A stretch of 64,000 nt of DNA, taken from the NCBI GenBank assembly GCA_942493035.1, contig OW818666.1, positions 3,936,813-4,000,812 on the forward strand, written 5' to 3'. The DNA comes from an uncultured Spirochaetota bacterium (lineage in GTDB: Bacteria > Spirochaetota > UBA4802 > UBA5550). Position 1 is the stretch's first letter. Every line of letters starts with the position of its first letter. Shown one piece after another: positions 7,084 to 59,534 of this stretch. The notes beneath the pieces are model-generated. The model was not told where the DNA came from and did no database searches. It saw nothing but the letters and a program-made list of their open reading frames with translations. The position numbers and the translations under genes are program-made.

Positions 7084-8133
7084 CTATTCTGATTTTATAA
7101 CCCGGTTTCTTCCAAGAGCCTTTGCAGAGTATAAAGCTGTGTCTGATCTTTTAATGAGATCAATACCGCTTTTATCAATGTTATGGTTGAATTGAGCCAG
7201 ACCTATACTGATAGTTATATGAATATCTTTTTTATCATTTTTATATACTTCAGCTTCAATTTTTTTTCTTAAGCGTTCTGCTATAGTATATGCAGCATCA
7301 AGGTCTGTTTCTGTTAATATTATTGCAAATTCTTCGCCGCCGTATCTGGACGCTATGTCAAAAGCGCGAATATTCTGATGAATTATGGAGGCAGTTCCCT
7401 TTAAAATAACATCCCCCTGCTGGTGGCCATAGGTATCATTAATATCTTTGAAGTGATCCAGGTCGGCCATAATAAGGGTTAAGGGTGTACCCGTACGTTC
7501 TGATCTTTTTATTTCCTCTACAAGTCTCTCCTGAAAATAATGATGTATAAAGAGTCCTGTCATCCTGTCCAGGGTTGCCATTCTGTAAAGACGGGAATTT
7601 TCAACCGCTATTGAAGCAAATTTTGCCATTTTTTCAAGAAATAGAAAATCCTGGTCAGTATATGAATTTTCCATAATTTTCTGACTTAAAAATATAAGTC
7701 CATTAATTGAATTTTTAGATTTTAATGGAATTACTATTTCAGGCTTCAACATCTCATATGTTTCCTTTGTTGAAGGATCTGCAGACATAAGTTCTCTGGC
7801 CTTTTCAGAGTCTATTATGCCGCAATTTGAATAGAGATAATTGATTAGATTTGATTTTGATACTATTTTTAAATCAGGCTCAAGAGTATAACCCCGTGAC
7901 ATATATAAAGTAAGTTCATCATTTTCAAGATTGGAATTTAAAAAAATAGCAGCCTTATCGACAATCATCTGCCCTATGCATATATATAGAATTGATTCAA
8001 CAAGACTATCAAATTCAAGATTTGACGACAGACTTAAAGCAATTTCGAGCAGGTTTTGCAGGTCAAATACCATCTTCTCAAGATTGTCTCTATCAAGTGA
8101 ATTAATATGTTTATTATTATGAATAGTTGTCAT
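7084..8133 (-). CDS. Diguanylate cyclase, GAF-GGDEF
   Basis: 349 aa; C-terminal GGDEF domain with intact RYGGEEF motif; N-terminal GAF-like domain. Confidence 0.9.
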   Translation of the reverse strand: MTTIHNNKHINSLDRDNLEKMVFDLQNLLEIALSLSSNLEFDSLVESILYICIGQMIVDKAAIFLNSNLENDELTLYMSRGYTLEPDLKIVSKSNLINYLYSNCGIIDSEKARELMSADPSTKETYEMLKPEIVIPLKSKNSINGLIFLSQKIMENSYTDQDFLFLEKMAKFASIAVENSRLYRMATLDRMTGLFIHHYFQERLVEEIKRSERTGTPLTLIMADLDHFKDINDTYGHQQGDVILKGTASIIHQNIRAFDIASRYGGEEFAIILTETDLDAAYTIAERLRKKIEAEVYKNDKKDIHITISIGLAQFNHNIDKSGIDLIKRSDTALYSAKALGRNRVIKSE

Positions 8134-8364
8134 ATGTTTTATATTATACTCTAAAAGGTATATCGGTTTTTTAAAGTATTATTTGTATCTTTTTAATTTT
8201 TTAGTCAATTTTATCGAAAAAATATTTGATAAAGATCAGGTATTTAGTGATAAACTGGCTGTTATCCGAGCACGCCGTTGATCAGATAACAGCTGTTTTA
8301 AGCAGTTACAGGATAATATATTTTTATTAAATATTTTAATAAAAATTAACATAAAAAACAAAAA

Positions 8365-32795: not shown

Positions 32796-33662
32796 TTAAT
32801 TGGTTTTTTTAATTATAAGAGTGTAATCGCCCTGAGTATTCCAGTAAGAACCTTGTTGAATAACTACAGTTCTGGCACTCTCTACTGTGTAATTTTCATT
32901 ATAAGGAGCATTATCAATTCTTGAAATGAAAGTTGATGATCCGGTATTGATGAGATTTGCTATGCTTCCCTGTGCAAGATTAAAAACAGAAAAGTTATAA
33001 GAGTATTTTCCAGCAGGAACAATTAATTTATATGTATCTCTTGATGGACTACCGTAAGAAGAGTTACATTCTCCCGAAAGAGTTATTTTAGAGTAAGGCG
33101 TTATGTTAATTGATATAGTTCCATCTTCATTATAATCGTCAAAATTATTGAAAGATGAAAAATAAGCTGAAGTTTGATTCCTGTCTATTCTTGTTGTAAT
33201 TTTTCCAATGAGAGTTCTATTTAAAACTCCTCCGTTCCATACTTTTCCGGAAAATGATAATTGAACATCGGAATCATGCCATTTCTCAACGGTGAGCGTA
33301 AAATCATCATTGAATGGGGATGTTTTAAAAGTTCCGCTGTCCTCTCTGAAAACAACTTTTACACCATCGTCTCCAGGTTTTAATATTTCACCTTCTATTA
33401 GATCTTTTTTCAAATGGAAAATAATTGGGTGTTCCAATTGACTTCCCTGATGTTTAAAGTTTATGTGCCAGTACTCATAATCCGGGTAGAGTTTTATTCC
33501 TCTGGTGTCTTCATGTTCAGAAGCAGTGATAGTTTTTGAATCTGCCTGAAGCGTTAGTTGTGCATAAGATGAATTGCCTTCTTTCTCATCGGGTTCAGTA
33601 TCGATACAACTGACCATTCCAAGAAAGAGAATGGCTGCTAAAAAAACTTTAAATTTGTTCAT
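32796..33662 (-). CDS. Hypothetical lipoprotein
   Basis: Start chosen at ATG 33662 (GGAG SD) giving signal/lipobox MNKFKVFLAAILFLGMVSC; no recognisable family. Confidence 0.45.
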   Translation of the reverse strand: MNKFKVFLAAILFLGMVSCIDTEPDEKEGNSSYAQLTLQADSKTITASEHEDTRGIKLYPDYEYWHINFKHQGSQLEHPIIFHLKKDLIEGEILKPGDDGVKVVFREDSGTFKTSPFNDDFTLTVEKWHDSDVQLSFSGKVWNGGVLNRTLIGKITTRIDRNQTSAYFSSFNNFDDYNEDGTISINITPYSKITLSGECNSSYGSPSRDTYKLIVPAGKYSYNFSVFNLAQGSIANLINTGSSTFISRIDNAPYNENYTVESARTVVIQQGSYWNTQGDYTLIIKKTN

Positions 33663-33795
33663 TTGAAACTCCATATTGATATTTTTTAAGTCATTAATAC
33701 ATACGTTCCAAACGTGCCTTGAAATAAAAAAAAGTAAAATAAAAAATACCCGGATAAAAAAATTGGTTTTTCCCGGGTATTTGTAATTCATGAAG

Positions 33796-36166: not shown

Positions 36167-36238
36167 ATAGAGTTTTGATGAGACTCCAGCCTAAATTATT
36201 AAATTGAAAAAGGTAAAAAATTTCTTGACAAAAATATA

Positions 36239-36266
36239 ATACTATATAGTATATTTCTATATAGAA
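36239..36266 (+). promoter_or_regulatory. Tandem palindromes ATACTATATAGTAT and TTCTATATAGAA in the MarR promoter; candidate MarR operator
   Basis: Perfect palindromes with CTATATAG core just downstream of a TTGACA box (36225-36230), 20-45 nt upstream of the MarR start. Confidence 0.4.
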
Positions 36267-36284
36267 TAAAAAGGATGAGTTCAT

Positions 36285-36731
36285 ATGGAAGAGTATCGCG
36301 GTGGTTTTCTTATAAGCCAAATAAAACAAATGAGTGGCAGATTATTCAATCAGCTGCTTTTAAAGAAGAATGTTGACGCCTTCAATGGAGAACAGGGACG
36401 TATTTTATATATTCTCTGGCAGGAAGATAGCATTACAATCCGGGAATTGGCAAATCGTACCGGGTTGGCTGTTACAACACTTACCAGCATGTTGGATCGG
36501 ATGGAGCAGGCAGAACTTATTGTTCGAAAATCTGACCCCGATGATAGAAGAAAGACATTAATTCAATTAGGGGAAAATGCCAGATCTTTGCAAAAGGATT
36601 ATGAAGAAGTATCCACAGAGATGGGCTCCCTGTTTTATCAAGGATTTAATAAGCAGGAAATACTGCAGTGTGAAAGGTATTTAATAAAAATATTAGAAAA
36701 TATGCAAGAAATAGAACAACAAAAGAAGTGA
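36285..36731 (+). CDS. MarR-family transcriptional regulator
   Basis: 148 aa; winged-helix core ITIRELANRTGLAVTTLTSMLDRMEQAELIVRKSDPDDRR. Confidence 0.85.
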   Translation: MEEYRGGFLISQIKQMSGRLFNQLLLKKNVDAFNGEQGRILYILWQEDSITIRELANRTGLAVTTLTSMLDRMEQAELIVRKSDPDDRRKTLIQLGENARSLQKDYEEVSTEMGSLFYQGFNKQEILQCERYLIKILENMQEIEQQKK

Positions 36732-36738
36732 AGTTTTT

Positions 36739-36861
36739 ATGATTTCTGTATACACCGGTTTCATAATGAGATTTGAAAGAAAAGGAATTATGAATAGAGT
36801 TAGAATACCTGCTGATGGAAAAGTTATTCTCTTTAGTAATAGAATCAAAATAGGAAAATGA
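36739..36861 (+). CDS. Small ORF (40 aa), translationally coupled to the following radical SAM gene
   Basis: MISVYTGFIMRFERKGIMNRVRIPADGKVILFSNRIKIGK; stop overlaps the ATG of the next gene (ATGATGG). Could be a chance ORF. Confidence 0.2.
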   Translation: MISVYTGFIMRFERKGIMNRVRIPADGKVILFSNRIKIGK

Positions 36862-37559
36862 TGGAAAAAATAGATATCAAACAATATATCAAAAACTTAG
36901 ATGCTGTTACGGGGTGCTCGATTGGCTGTAGTTATTGTTATGCCCGAGTTAACAATCAAAGATTTCCTGTTACAGTTGATTTTTCAGTACCGGAACTAAT
37001 AGAAAAACGGTTGAAACGAATCAGCACAAAAACTCCCAACATATATTTGATGACAAGTGCCAGCGATTTTTCCGGCTGGAAGGATGAATGGAGAGGTAGA
37101 GTTTTTGACTGTATGAAGCAGAATCCACAGCATATCTATTTGTTTTTAACAAAACGTCCGGACTTGATAGACTACTTTACAGACATGAAAAATGTCTGGT
37201 TTGGGGTTACGGTAAACAACAATGATGACAAAGCGCGTATTAAGATCATGAGAAAAAATATAAAGGCGTATCGTTATTTTATAACGTTCGAACCTTTACA
37301 TGAGGATTTAGGCAAACTTGATCTGGATGGGATTTCCTGGATTGTGATCGGCACGGAGACAGGAAAAAGAAAAGGAAAGATTGATGCAAGGGCAGAATGG
37401 GTAACGAATATTAGCAGACAAGCCCAAAAGTATAATATTCCGGTATTCATGAAGGCTGCACTTGAAGATGTTGTCAGGGGAGAGAATATGATACAAAACT
37501 TCCCGGATGACTTTAATAGAATATTTAAGCTGAATGGAAAGGAATTGCACTATGGTTGA
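36858..37559 (+). CDS. Radical SAM-like protein, Gp37/Gp68 (DUF5131)-type, SPL superfamily
   Basis: 233 aa; N-terminal CX3CX2C cluster GCSIGCSYCYA. Confidence 0.65.
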   Translation: MMEKIDIKQYIKNLDAVTGCSIGCSYCYARVNNQRFPVTVDFSVPELIEKRLKRISTKTPNIYLMTSASDFSGWKDEWRGRVFDCMKQNPQHIYLFLTKRPDLIDYFTDMKNVWFGVTVNNNDDKARIKIMRKNIKAYRYFITFEPLHEDLGKLDLDGISWIVIGTETGKRKGKIDARAEWVTNISRQAQKYNIPVFMKAALEDVVRGENMIQNFPDDFNRIFKLNGKELHYG

Positions 37560-38448
37560 AAAGATACAGGAGATTCATACAAAAAGTGTTTTGACAAAAT
37601 CAAATCTGCCGATAGCAGGATATTCAGTTAATCCGTATGTAGGATGTCCTCACAGTTGTAAGTATTGTTATGCCACTTTTATGAAGCGTTTTACAAACCA
37701 TACAGAACCATGGGGTACTTTTCTGGATGTCAAGAATTGGCCGCCTATAACCAATCCGAAAAAATATAAGGGAAAAACGATTATTATTGGTTCCGTTACA
37801 GATGCTTATCATCCGTTGGAAGAGAAATATAAACGCACACGGCAATTTTTAGAACAAATGCAGGGAAGCGAAGCAAATCTTATCATAACCACCAAGTCAG
37901 ATTTGGTGCTGCGGGATTTGGACCTGATAAAAACATTTCCCGATCCTCTGGTTTCCTGGTCAATCAATACTCTCGATGAGAATTTTCGCTCTGATATGGA
38001 TTCAGCTTCTTCCATTGAACAGAGGATCGCAGCCATGAAGATCTTTCATGATGCAGGTATTCGAACTACCTGTTTCATCTCACCGATATTTCCGGGGATA
38101 ACGGATGTTCTGGCAATAATCAACAGGATAAAAGATCAATGCGATTATATATGGCTTGAAAACTTGAACCTGAGAGGAGATTATAAATCTGTCATAATGA
38201 ATTATATTGAAAGTCGTTATCCTGATTTAGTTCCGTTATATAAAGAAATCTATCAAAACAAAAGCAGACAGTATTGGGAGGAATTGAATAATCAAATTGC
38301 TTCTTACACAGAACAGAATGGTTATTTATATCTTATTAACGAAGAACCATTTCAAAAAAATTCAACTGGAAAACCGATTATCATCAACTATTTTTACCAT
38401 GAAAAAATCCGGCAAACTGCTAAAAAAATAACACCTCAAAAATTCTGA
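37552..38448 (+). CDS. Radical SAM protein, spore-photoproduct-lyase (SplB/COG1533)-like
   Basis: About 298 aa from ATG 37552 (AAGGAA SD); N-terminal CX3CX2C cluster GCPHSCKYCYA; overlaps the previous gene. Confidence 0.75.
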   Translation: MVEKIQEIHTKSVLTKSNLPIAGYSVNPYVGCPHSCKYCYATFMKRFTNHTEPWGTFLDVKNWPPITNPKKYKGKTIIIGSVTDAYHPLEEKYKRTRQFLEQMQGSEANLIITTKSDLVLRDLDLIKTFPDPLVSWSINTLDENFRSDMDSASSIEQRIAAMKIFHDAGIRTTCFISPIFPGITDVLAIINRIKDQCDYIWLENLNLRGDYKSVIMNYIESRYPDLVPLYKEIYQNKSRQYWEELNNQIASYTEQNGYLYLINEEPFQKNSTGKPIIINYFYHEKIRQTAKKITPQKF

Positions 38449-38562
38449 GTTAAAACAATCAATACACAATATTCGACTTCTCTTGTTTCTATAATTTTTA
38501 ATCATACTGTTTCTTTGACATTCCTTTTTATAGATTAATACCATAAAGTATTTAAAAAATAG

Positions 38563-38610
38563 TACTATATAGAAATAAAATTACTTGACGAATAATATTA
38601 CTATATAGTA
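38563..38610 (+). promoter_or_regulatory. Two copies of the CTATATAG-core palindrome flanking a TTGACG box
   Basis: TACTATATAGA (38563-38573) and TACTATATAGTA (38599-38610), same motif as the MarR promoter operators. Confidence 0.35.
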
Positions 38611-38647
38611 CTGTTTTATATAGTAATATTATGGAGGTGTCTTTTAA

Positions 38648-38863
38648 ATGGATGATTTACAGTTAAAAAGAATAAGTAGCGACTTATTGAAAACTGCGGA
38701 GGTGGCATATTTATAAACGATAACTGGTGATGGTTTTCCTGAAACACGCGGATTATTAAATCTTAAGAATGAAAAGCAATTTCCAGATTATACATTACTA
38801 AAGATGAAACCGACGGTTGTAAAAGGGTATCATCAGGGCAATACTTACAAGTTGGAATTTTAA
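38648..38863 (+). pseudogene. Remnant of a pyridoxamine 5'-phosphate oxidase-like (PPOX/general stress protein 26) gene with in-frame TAA and truncated 3' end
   Basis: MDDLQLKRISSDLLKTAEVAYL*TITGDGFPETRGLLNLKNEK... reads like a PPOX-family N-terminus, interrupted by TAA at 38714-38716 and ending after about 70 codons. Confidence 0.35.
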
Positions 38864-38940: not shown

Positions 38941-39330
38941 ATGAAAGGACAACAAGTAATTGAAACTTTTTATGAAGCTTTAGCAAAAGGAGATGTTCCA
39001 ACAGCATTTTCATTTTTTACAACAGATGTAAAGTGGAATCAACCAGGAAGTAATAAATTTTCAGGTATTAAAAACAATCCTGATGAAATTGGAGCTATGT
39101 TTGGTGAAATGTCGGCAGTCACAAATGGTACTTTGCTTATAGTTCCCAATGGTCCGTTGATGGTAAGTGGTGACTTGATAGCTTGCCCGGTAAGATTTAC
39201 CGGAAAAAAAGGGGATAAGAGTATGGATTTGACAGGACTTGACCTGTTTGAAGTGAAAACCGGCAAAATCACCCAGGTCTGGCTTTTCACTGAAGATCAA
39301 AAGAGCGAAGATGATTTCTGGGGGAAATAA
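38941..39330 (+). CDS. NTF2-like / SnoaL-like small protein
   Basis: 129 aa; N-terminus MKGQQVIETFYEALAKGDVPTAFSFFTTDVKWNQPG typical of the ketosteroid-isomerase-like fold; AGGAG SD. Confidence 0.55.
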   Translation: MKGQQVIETFYEALAKGDVPTAFSFFTTDVKWNQPGSNKFSGIKNNPDEIGAMFGEMSAVTNGTLLIVPNGPLMVSGDLIACPVRFTGKKGDKSMDLTGLDLFEVKTGKITQVWLFTEDQKSEDDFWGK

Positions 39331-39404: not shown

Positions 39405-39441
39405 TAAAAAAGAGAGCCGCTGAATTAGCGGCTCTCTTTCA
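39405..39441. terminator. Rho-independent terminator, bidirectional
   Basis: AAAAAAGAGAGCCGCTGAATTAGCGGCTCTCTTTCAC between convergent genes. Confidence 0.65.
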
Positions 39442-59224: not shown

Positions 59225-59362
59225 AAAAAAGCCGCGTACGGAGGAACGCGGCATATACATTGATAATCTATAGTTATTGTACTGCCGTTTCCCTCCGCCG
59301 GTATTAACCGGATCAGGTAAAAAGGGTATAATCTCAGCACGCATTTACTGCGGCACCCCTAA
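59225..59362 (-). promoter_or_regulatory. TPP (THI-box) riboswitch with terminator expression platform
   Basis: Minus strand reads UAGGGGUGCCGCAGUAAAUGCGUGCUGAGAUUAUACCCUUUUACCUGAUCCGGUUAAUACCGGCGGAGGGAAACGG, then hairpin GCCGCGUUCCUCCGUACGCGGC plus U-run, then GGAGGAA SD and the thi4 AUG. Confidence 0.9.
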
Positions 59363-59534
59363 CGGTAAAAATTTTATCAAAGAACTGATTTATTAAAAAA
59401 TCTACCGGGCATTGATGTCAATTAATTATTATATTTTTAATCTAATAAAAATATAATAATTTAAAGCGCTGTGAATTTCTATTATAAACAAGCCAGTGTC
59501 GAAAAACCATGATTCTAAAAACTAGCTGATATTA

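Follow-up and report, generated by a model that had tools for sequence, protein, structure and literature searches.

Which system is encoded by a compact group of genes that places two radical S-adenosylmethionine (SAM) enzymes next to a single MarR-family regulator in the genome of an uncultured Spirochaetota bacterium, and what chemistry might it carry out? The question is raised by a stretch of 64,000 nucleotides (GenBank assembly GCA_942493035.1, contig OW818666.1, positions 3,936,813 to 4,000,812 of the forward strand), in the following termed the window, where the regulator gene is followed by a 40-codon open reading frame (ORF) and by the two enzyme genes, here designated A and B. A first-pass annotation of this DNA had described the arrangement as a cassette that matches no module it could name, and had suggested that the small ORF may code for a peptide and that the enzymes either repair or modify DNA and nucleotides or act on this peptide. 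According to our analysis, the locus is not a new kind of system but a copy, rearranged and decayed in part, of the cassette known in NCBIfam as the radical SAM mobile pair.

The assignment is reflected in the properties of the three intact proteins. B matches the model of the 'radical SAM mobile pair protein B' (TIGR04470) with 477.5 bits (E 1.4e-143) over the entire model (1-285/285), above its cut-off of 410, A the model of 'protein A' of the same system (TIGR04471) with 296.4 bits (E 1.1e-88, model positions 2-219/220, below the cut-off of 355) and the regulator the model of the mobile pair system MarR regulator (TIGR04472) with 176.4 bits (E 3e-52, 2-139/141, below the cut-off of 240). 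For all three proteins, these are the best NCBIfam matches, at full length and well ahead of other families, with the next-best model of the regulator scoring only 47.8 bits. We consider it very probable that the window locus is a radical SAM mobile pair cassette and, since only B reaches the curated cut-off, that its copy belongs to a divergent branch. The set of three models covers exactly the module for which a name had been missing, which RefSeq also labels as such on plasmids. As in the remainder of the family, the locus contains the same three proteins, with A and B in tandem on the same strand, overlapping or abutting, and with an adjoining MarR gene; the family shows a sporadic distribution, with copies on plasmids and mobilisable elements. 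Unlike canonical mobile pairs, the window copy has MarR separated from A by the relic of a gene coding for a metallo-beta-lactamase (MBL)-fold protein, and its additional operator-controlled unit contains a dead gene of the PNPOx family. The earlier impression of an uncharacterised function was borne out, as our literature searches for the module and its model names returned no paper on the radical SAM mobile pair.

Every ORF was found in the order described earlier (Table 1), and the family calls hold in a Pfam scan, where the regulator matches MarR with 62.2 bits (E 4.2e-17), A matches DUF5131 (PF07505) with 120.9 bits (E 8.3e-35, gathering threshold 28.9), B matches Radical_SAM (PF04055, gathering threshold 29.5 bits) with 60.2 bits, a model for which A falls just under the threshold with 25.7 bits, and the gene downstream of the cassette matches SnoaL_2. 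The stop codon of MarR and the start of the 40-codon ORF are separated by 7 nucleotides, and the TGA of the latter overlaps the start of A (ATGATGG). Of the possible starts of A at 36858 and 36861, the second is used in its database copy (P0122, 232 residues, motif GCSIGCSYCYA). Since the database copy of B (P0001, motif GCPHSCKYCYA) contains 298 residues, a start of B at 37552 is likelier than one at 37534, so that the end of A and the beginning of B overlap by 8 nucleotides (ATGGTTGA), with a ribosome-binding site (GGAAAGGA) upstream. That this arrangement is not a product of chance is evident from the joint recurrence of the same genes in many unrelated genomes.

The co-occurrence of MarR and the two radical SAM genes in other organisms was found in loci anchored on either enzyme. 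A search for homologues of B provided at least 8000 scored candidates, all with E <= 1e-20, and in GTDB species genomes at least 548 stretches with a relative were located. Among 73 species-level B-anchored loci with enough upstream sequence, A is found directly upstream of B in 48 and a mobile-pair MarR is present in 30, with both accompanying B in 25 cases, A only in 23, MarR only in 5 and neither in 20. After dereplication at 95% identity, the resulting 55 clusters show the orders A-MarR-B (15), A-B (15), MarR-B (6), B alone (18) and MarR-A-B (1), the last in a Fusobacteriaceae metagenome-assembled genome. The MarR-A-B order of the window, with MarR beside the A-B tandem, is also found on the Selenomonas plasmid pSRC6 and in locus L013. 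In A-anchored metagenome loci, a highly redundant set from the human gut, B immediately follows A in 78 of 80 cases. These genomic patterns point to B as the core enzyme, with A as an accessory which usually travels with it.

The composition of the cassette varies among relatives. In 61 dereplicated loci, partners include HxlR regulators (15), MBL proteins (10), flavin reductases (7) and nitroreductases (5), PNPOx proteins being found in three of the closest loci, and the alternative regulators encountered are of the HxlR, AraC and PadR types. In a few loci of Lachnospiraceae type, a DUF1848 protein (PF08902, 330 bits, with a C-terminal CKYCYA) replaces A beside B (L079, 5054-6019; also L081, L067 and L047), which suggests that A is not the only radical SAM-like protein with which B can pair. 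A nitroreductase takes the place of A directly upstream of B in a few cases, and the loci L065, L070, L075, L081 and L082 combine another MarR-type regulator with a nitroreductase (BluB-like in NCBIfam, 53 bits) and B, without A. A second B-like gene of 28% identity is located upstream of the A-MarR-B cassette of Clostridium sp. CAG:1193 (L030, 3908-4678). Next to the third-closest homologue of A (L169, 75% identical), B has lost residues ~82-218 by an internal deletion (7723-8155), and this locus is another decaying copy of the cassette. Long B-like proteins of 358-427 residues (P0002, P0012, P0017, P0030 and P0046) were considered as A-B fusions and rejected, as segments of B are duplicated in tandem within them; apparently artefacts of metagenome assembly, they provide no Rosetta-stone evidence.

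Relatives of B are also found on 33 plasmid records. Plasmids of ~98 kb from Bacteroides, Parabacteroides and Phocaeicola encode an AraC regulator, an MBL-fold hydrolase, A and B beside MobC/relaxase and recombinase genes, whereas pSRC6 in its RefSeq annotation carries a recombinase, MarR, A, B and a chloramphenicol acetyltransferase (CAT). The plasmid NZ_CP069564.1 (L163) and more than 20 similar plasmids range from ~72 to 119 kb, many being near 98 kb; on each of them B shows the same match statistics, with 63.2% identity to B of the window, and they are classified as non-mobilizable by MOB-suite despite the annotated MobC and relaxase genes.

The origin of the 40-codon ORF is illustrated by the locus of Clostridium sp. 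SHJSY1 (L003), where a gene coding for an MBL-fold protein of 254 residues (Lactamase_B_2) is placed between MarR and B, whose products are 76% and 81% identical to their counterparts in the window. An intact MBL gene occupies the position of the small ORF in L003, L175, L163 and other loci, and in the Bacteroides plasmids and in L175 it is found directly upstream of A-B. Over its full length the ORF aligns with the 38 C-terminal residues of the MBL protein (L003/L175), with Smith-Waterman scores against the MBL C-terminus of 46-49 compared to 24 +/- 4 for shuffled sequences (z 5.3-6.3 as read), and upon restoration of its frame the z-score against the proteins of L003 and L175 increases to 8.4-9.1, with 0 of 2000 shuffles scoring as high. 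At the DNA level, 42 of 56 nucleotides are identical to the 3' end of the L003 gene. The frame is interrupted by a deletion of one nucleotide after GATGGA, between 36819 and 36820; once restored, it ends in RVRIPADGxSYSL followed by a stop codon, compared to RVLIPDDGESYVF followed by a stop in L003, with TAG at 36834-36836 as ancestral stop. It is by this frameshift that the ORF extends as far as the TGA overlapping the start codon of A. The same relic is present at the same place in L013.

Judged from these alignments, the 40-codon ORF is what a frameshift has left of the 3' end of a gene for an MBL-fold hydrolase, rather than the small peptide gene that had been considered possible, as it shows no homologue in a tblastn search of more than 160 related loci and no Shine-Dalgarno sequence precedes it in the raw sequence. 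The similarity is below what standard searches detect: default BLASTP of the 40-residue ORF against the L003 protein gave no match, and a hidden Markov model built mostly of near-identical Bacteroides MBL genes placed the relic at rank 2 of 1807 frames with an E of 2.3, which is too weak and is not relied on here. A Pfam match of the small ORF to MarR (E 0.034) was judged to be a chance hit.

The predicted control of the cassette is reflected in the organization of its promoters. Promoter 1, whose first nucleotide is where the first-pass annotation began the cassette, consists of the marR -35 box TTGACA (36225-36230), a spacer of 16 nucleotides and the -10 box TAGTAT (36247-36252). A perfect palindrome (O1, ATACTATATAGTAT, 36239-36252) overlaps the -10 box and another palindrome (O2, TTCTATATAGAA, 36254-36265) covers the likely transcription start. 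The core CTATATAG occurs four times in the 64-kb window, twice at promoter 1 and at 38565 and 38601, and ACTATATAGWA with no more than one mismatch is found 16 times compared to 3.15 +/- 1.99 expected copies. Among 24 loci that contain the mobile-pair MarR, 14 have a tandem operator immediately ahead of their first cassette gene, compared to 0 of 33 loci without this MarR; variant half-sites are visible by eye in several further loci of the former group, and no tandem pair was detected in 345 kb of other flanking DNA. Besides the protein of L003, those of L165 and L013 are 70% and 62% identical to the MarR of the window. A second promoter region contains palindromes at 38560-38577, 38598-38611 and 38614-38626 around a TTGACG at 38585-38590, where no -10 box could be placed with confidence. 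This region is followed by a good ribosome-binding site and a reading frame that is broken. The same layout with two promoters is found in L165 and L175. We regard the palindrome pattern as the likely signature of an autoregulated MarR operator, and autorepression through these sites as probable. In this respect, the locus resembles autoregulated operons of the MarR/OhrR type, where the regulator gene resides in the operon that it is predicted to control and where tandem palindromes extend over the -10 box and the +1 position, here with a second promoter equipped with the same sites. It differs from other MarR operons in the operator itself, as the consensus TACTATATAGTA is specific to the MarR subfamily of the mobile pair, which is predicted to bind it.

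The broken reading frame behind the second promoter was found to be a decayed gene as had been supposed. A phmmer search with the 48 residues encoded in its second half (38717-38860) against 1.84 billion representatives identified P0242 with an E of 2.5e-12 in two stretches, and the matches are PNPOx_N/Pyrid_ox_like proteins of 151-164 residues. In an alignment with the intact PNPOx protein of L175 only residues 1-45 and 126-150 have counterparts, indicating an in-frame deletion of ~80 codons, and codon 23 is a TAA nonsense codon (38714-38716). The relic itself finds no match in Pfam or NCBIfam and none in a word-indexed search. The gene downstream, of SnoaL-like type, is probably the distal gene of the same transcription unit, and its placement suggests that it belongs to the MarR regulon.

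The arrangement from which this island may have originated is found in related loci. In L165, an operator-promoter is followed by B (73% identical), MarR and a second operator-promoter that precedes a PNPOx gene, and in L175 the order is operator-promoter, MBL, A (72%), B, MarR, operator-promoter, PNPOx and Lactamase_B. In L173, a divergent HxlR-acetyltransferase gene is followed by PNPOx, flavin reductase, A and B. The island of the window (36.2-39.4 kb), in which MarR, A and B are intact and the MBL and PNPOx genes are dead, is by this comparison a rearranged, degenerate derivative of an L175-like module. Positions 1-5278 of L175, a Logan contig (SRR28335225), hold an apparently complete and intact module, which would offer a better template for experiments than the copy of the window. 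In Olivibacter jilunii (L170, 5001-10087), a homologue of A without B is found amid genes of stress and detoxification type, including those for glyoxalase/Ble-like, MBL (45% identical to L003), SnoaL, TPMT-like methyltransferase, NmrA and DinB_2 proteins; this locus also contains a fragment of 80 residues that is 48% identical to the SnoaL-like protein of the window, separate from a SnoaL gene near the A homologue and the MBL gene.

The island is flanked by acyl-CoA genes as described earlier, with CoA-transferase and enoyl-CoA hydratase genes on one side and acyl-CoA dehydrogenase and thiolase genes on the other, all on the minus strand. The view that it constitutes inserted accessory DNA is plausible in light of the variable contexts and plasmid copies of its relatives, but composition and flanking repeats give no support for a recent insertion. 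The GC content of the cassette genes (0.36-0.38) compares to 0.41-0.44 in the flanking acyl-CoA genes and to a window mean of 0.373, the GC content at third codon positions does not differ from that of the flanks and the GC dips of the window are intergenic. No flanking direct repeats were found around the island, and no transposase, integrase, Mob or other mobility gene was noted in the nearby ORF lists, where most ORFs are unannotated. The horizontal transfer of the family is well supported, since its closest relatives reside in unrelated contexts and since copies are plasmid-borne. At the right edge of the island, a hairpin on the minus strand is the putative terminator of the acyl-CoA dehydrogenase unit, which would place the island between two transcription units and not inside one; it is absent from a terminator scan, as it meets the loop and T-run criteria only in part and on the minus strand only.

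Table 1. Features of the mobile pair island in the window (window coordinates).
Feature	Position	Strand	Basis or remark
Promoter 1 and tandem operator	36225-36265	+	described with the regulation in the text
MarR-family regulator gene	36285-36731	+	ORF list and raw sequence
40-codon ORF	36739-36861	+	3' relic of MBL-fold (Lactamase_B_2) hydrolase gene
Gene A, DUF5131 (phage Gp37/Gp68-type) radical SAM-like	36861-37559	+	motif CxxxCxYCY at 36915-36941
Gene B, radical SAM, related to SplB-like PA0069/Rv2578c	37552-38448	+	motif CxxxCxYCY at 37645-37671
Second operator-bearing promoter region	38553-38632	+	palindromes around TTGACG
Decayed PNPOx-family (FMN-binding split-barrel) gene	38648-38863	+	phmmer and alignment with L175
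SnoaL-like (NTF2-fold) gene	38941-39330	+	Pfam SnoaL_2, E 1.7e-11
Hairpin GAGAGCCGCT/AGCGGCTCTC, T-run on minus strand	39412-39436	-	read from sequence

Elsewhere in the window, a minus-strand ORF of 331 codons (32796-33791), placed shortly downstream of the CoA-transferase gene where the GC content is low, shows by eye a hydrophobic N-terminal stretch with a cysteine as possible lipoprotein signal and has no Pfam match at E <= 1e-5. The only Rfam match in the window is a thiamine pyrophosphate (TPP) riboswitch (RF00059) at 59273-59370 on the minus strand, with 73 bits compared to a gathering threshold of 54.3.

A view on the function of A and B is provided by their predicted structures, which were modelled with AlphaFold. 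The best structural neighbour of both models is spore photoproduct lyase (SPL; SplB; PDB 4fhc), and the placement of the enzymes in the SPL superfamily is in this respect borne out at the level of the fold. A, B and SPL share the partial TIM barrel of radical SAM enzymes with a CxxxCxYCY cluster motif, and the tyrosines flanking the third cysteine of SPL presumably match those in the CxYCY motifs of A and B. In SPL, a cysteine (Cys141 in B. subtilis) acts as catalytic hydrogen donor, and a beta-hairpin serves in flipping the damaged DNA. With 232 and 298 residues, A and B are both shorter than SPL (340), and the mobile pair, unlike SPL, is not linked to sporulation, as it is present in organisms that do not form spores such as Bacteroides and Fusobacteriaceae. 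Neither protein is an SPL in sequence, with scores against the models TIGR04070/TIGR03886 (cut-offs 400/437 bits) of 16.7/14.8 for A and 13.2/16.8 for B, and a PDB sequence search found no relative of A or B among solved structures. The isoelectric points of both enzymes are basic (9.2 and 8.6), and no SPASM, twitch or RRE domain was detected in a Pfam scan of the two proteins. The description of A and B as two paralogous enzymes stands insofar as hhalign detects distant homology (probability 92.6%, E 4.5e-7), but since this relationship is confined to the N-terminal 130 columns, the term paralogous overstates it.

Among sequence families, A is a clear member of DUF5131 (Megacluster-5-2 at RadicalSAM.org), and DUF5131 and SPL share one megacluster in this resource (PMC9477430). 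Homologues of A with 27-32% identity are found in Enterocloster, Gordonia and Mycobacterium phages, while A itself forms a distinct DUF5131 subfamily tied to B and to stress-type regulators, and its copy in the window is not part of a prophage. The next-closest NCBIfam families of B are PA0069 (NF033668, 129.8 bits, E 1e-37) and Rv2578c (NF038135, 102.4 bits, E 2e-29), to which it is related without being a member, as it scores far below their cut-offs (360/430 bits). We infer that these families correspond to the COG1533 'SplB' group; a literature search on them gave nothing related. Genes of the COG1533 SplB group are regulated by LexA in Actinobacteria, several Proteobacteria, Verrucomicrobia and Bacteroidetes, and on grounds of this control a role in DNA repair has been presumed (PMC4951493, PMC8565304). 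Like B, the SplB-like proteins of COG1533 are biochemically uncharacterised. B is distinguished from this group by its control by MarR, HxlR or AraC rather than LexA, by its mobility and by its pairing with A or a DUF1848 protein.

Collectively, these features suggest the following mechanism. A MarR dimer would bind to the tandem palindromes that extend over the -10 box and the start site of the sigma-70-type promoter from which marR is transcribed, and repress the operon marR-(MBL relic)-A-B, while the same operator downstream of B would place the PNPOx-like gene, dead in this copy, and probably the SnoaL-like gene under MarR as well. A small-molecule signal would release the repressor, most likely an electrophilic or redox-active xenobiotic in light of the regulators of the family (MarR, HxlR, AraC, PadR) and of the neighbours found elsewhere, which include nitroreductases, FMN/flavin reductases, PNPOx proteins and MBL hydrolases. 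Regulators and partners of such types mark responses to electrophiles, quinones, aldehydes and nitro compounds. A and B would then be produced together by translational coupling via their 8-nucleotide overlap, and each would bind a [4Fe-4S] cluster via CxxxCxYC and cleave SAM to generate a 5'-deoxyadenosyl radical. In the step that is the most conjectural of all, they would most likely reverse or process a damaged nucleic-acid base by hydrogen-atom abstraction under anoxic chemical stress. The flavoprotein partners could equally well act as reductants of the iron-sulfur clusters.

On balance, we somewhat favour as best overall explanation a MarR-controlled mobile pair that acts on a damaged nucleic-acid base. 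The lesion as substrate of A and B is in itself a tentative proposal, made in light of their SPL-like folds, the kinship of B to the PA0069/Rv2578c families, as equated with COG1533, and the basic isoelectric points. Several observations weigh against this explanation. Literature searches found no experimental datum for any member of the mobile pair, and A and MarR of the window remain under the curated equivalog cut-offs of TIGR04471 and TIGR04472. B is found without A in 25 of the 73 B-anchored loci and, among individually examined homologues from other phyla, A is found without B in Olivibacter and Brevinema, so that both enzymes need not share one substrate. With two of its six island genes dead, the cassette may be decaying in this genome. 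The model of B is poor, with a pLDDT below 50 at residues 30-62 including the cluster loop, and from the catalytic residues of SPL only the CxYCY tyrosines can be read from the sequences of A and B. No LexA-type control is evident at the window cassette, and the partners of the family (MBL, PNPOx, nitroreductase, SnoaL, glyoxalase/Ble and DinB_2) fit detoxification as well as repair.

The main alternative is that A and B transform a small xenobiotic or antibiotic of aromatic, nitro or heterocyclic nature, with MBL, PNPOx/flavin reductase and SnoaL proteins acting in the same pathway and with the MarR, HxlR or AraC regulators sensing the compound, which we regard as rather unlikely. The recurrent MBL, flavin reductase, nitroreductase and PNPOx partners counted above (10 of 61, 7, 5 and 3 loci) are typical detoxification enzymes, in Olivibacter A is accompanied by glyoxalase/Ble, TPMT, NmrA and DinB_2 proteins, the regulators are of ligand-responsive types and not LexA, the genes are plasmid-borne with a chloramphenicol acetyltransferase as neighbour on pSRC6, and the genes co-shared between gut genera include some of COG1533 (PMC10782964). 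Conversely, the best structural neighbour of both predicted models is a DNA-repair enzyme and the next sequence relatives of B would be the SOS-regulated SplB group if PA0069/Rv2578c are equated with COG1533. The interchangeable and often absent partners, with B alone in about one third of the loci, are unlike a fixed pathway, and in the window the MBL and PNPOx genes are dead whereas both enzyme genes remain intact. No Nim family was among the matches in an NCBIfam scan of the partner flavoproteins, which leaves a specific connection with nitroimidazole resistance unsupported. Between repair and detoxification, our best guess remains a chemically inducible, radical-based activity of either kind. 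A more specific form of the repair hypothesis, in which an inducible radical SAM system, mainly of anaerobes, directly reverses nucleic-acid lesions caused by reduced nitro-aromatic, quinone and other electrophilic xenobiotics and has spread on plasmids and mobilisable elements of gut Bacteroides as a tolerance trait, with PNPOx/flavin reductase supplying electrons or removing the compound, appears improbable at present.

Other roles are further removed from the evidence. An anti-phage defence system, in which DUF5131-type or viperin-like enzymes would synthesize a modified nucleotide or act against the nucleic acid of the phage, is very unlikely, as PADLOC-DB 2.0 matches only A (PDC-M30B, PDC-M41B) via its generic DUF5131 domain and offers no meaningful match for B, while MarR and MBL match no defence family; moreover, the neighbourhoods contain stress and detoxification genes with ligand-responsive repressors instead of forming defence islands, and a dedicated MarR repressor is rare for defence systems. 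To the idea that A and B modify rRNA or tRNA and confer drug tolerance in a manner similar to Cfr/RlmN we assign a comparably low probability. The modification of a ribosomally synthesized precursor peptide by A and/or B, which the position of the 40-codon ORF just upstream of the radical SAM genes and the overlap of its stop with the start of A had brought to mind, can be practically dismissed. Since the ORF is an MBL relic, devoid of conservation in more than 160 loci and of a Shine-Dalgarno sequence, we reject it as peptide precursor; canonical cassettes such as those of pSRC6 and the Bacteroides plasmids have no such ORF at this place and the SPASM, twitch and RRE domains are lacking, by which the proposed role in peptide modification is essentially refuted.

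In summary, the present study has added to the description of the mobile pair an operator of defined sequence, a regulon with two promoters and a PNPOx flavoprotein among its products, the MBL protein as recurrent third component and the distinction of B as apparent core from A as accessory. The copy in the window is itself degenerate and promises no further new biology, and the interest lies in the chemistry of the family and its spread among gut anaerobes. The pair is among the more widespread sets of radical SAM genes without assigned chemistry, and B is in addition carried by a plasmid family which numerous human gut species of Bacteroides and Parabacteroides share. The pair combines predicted folds that are closest to a DNA-repair enzyme with a genetic setting under xenobiotic-type regulators and beside flavoproteins and hydrolases. 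If the improbable reversal of xenobiotic-induced lesions were to hold, the pair would join spore photoproduct lyase as a second class of enzymes that repair DNA/RNA by radical chemistry. Once solved, the function of the pair would thus reveal either a second radical reaction in DNA/RNA repair or an anaerobic detoxification or resistance chemistry that moves among gut bacteria.

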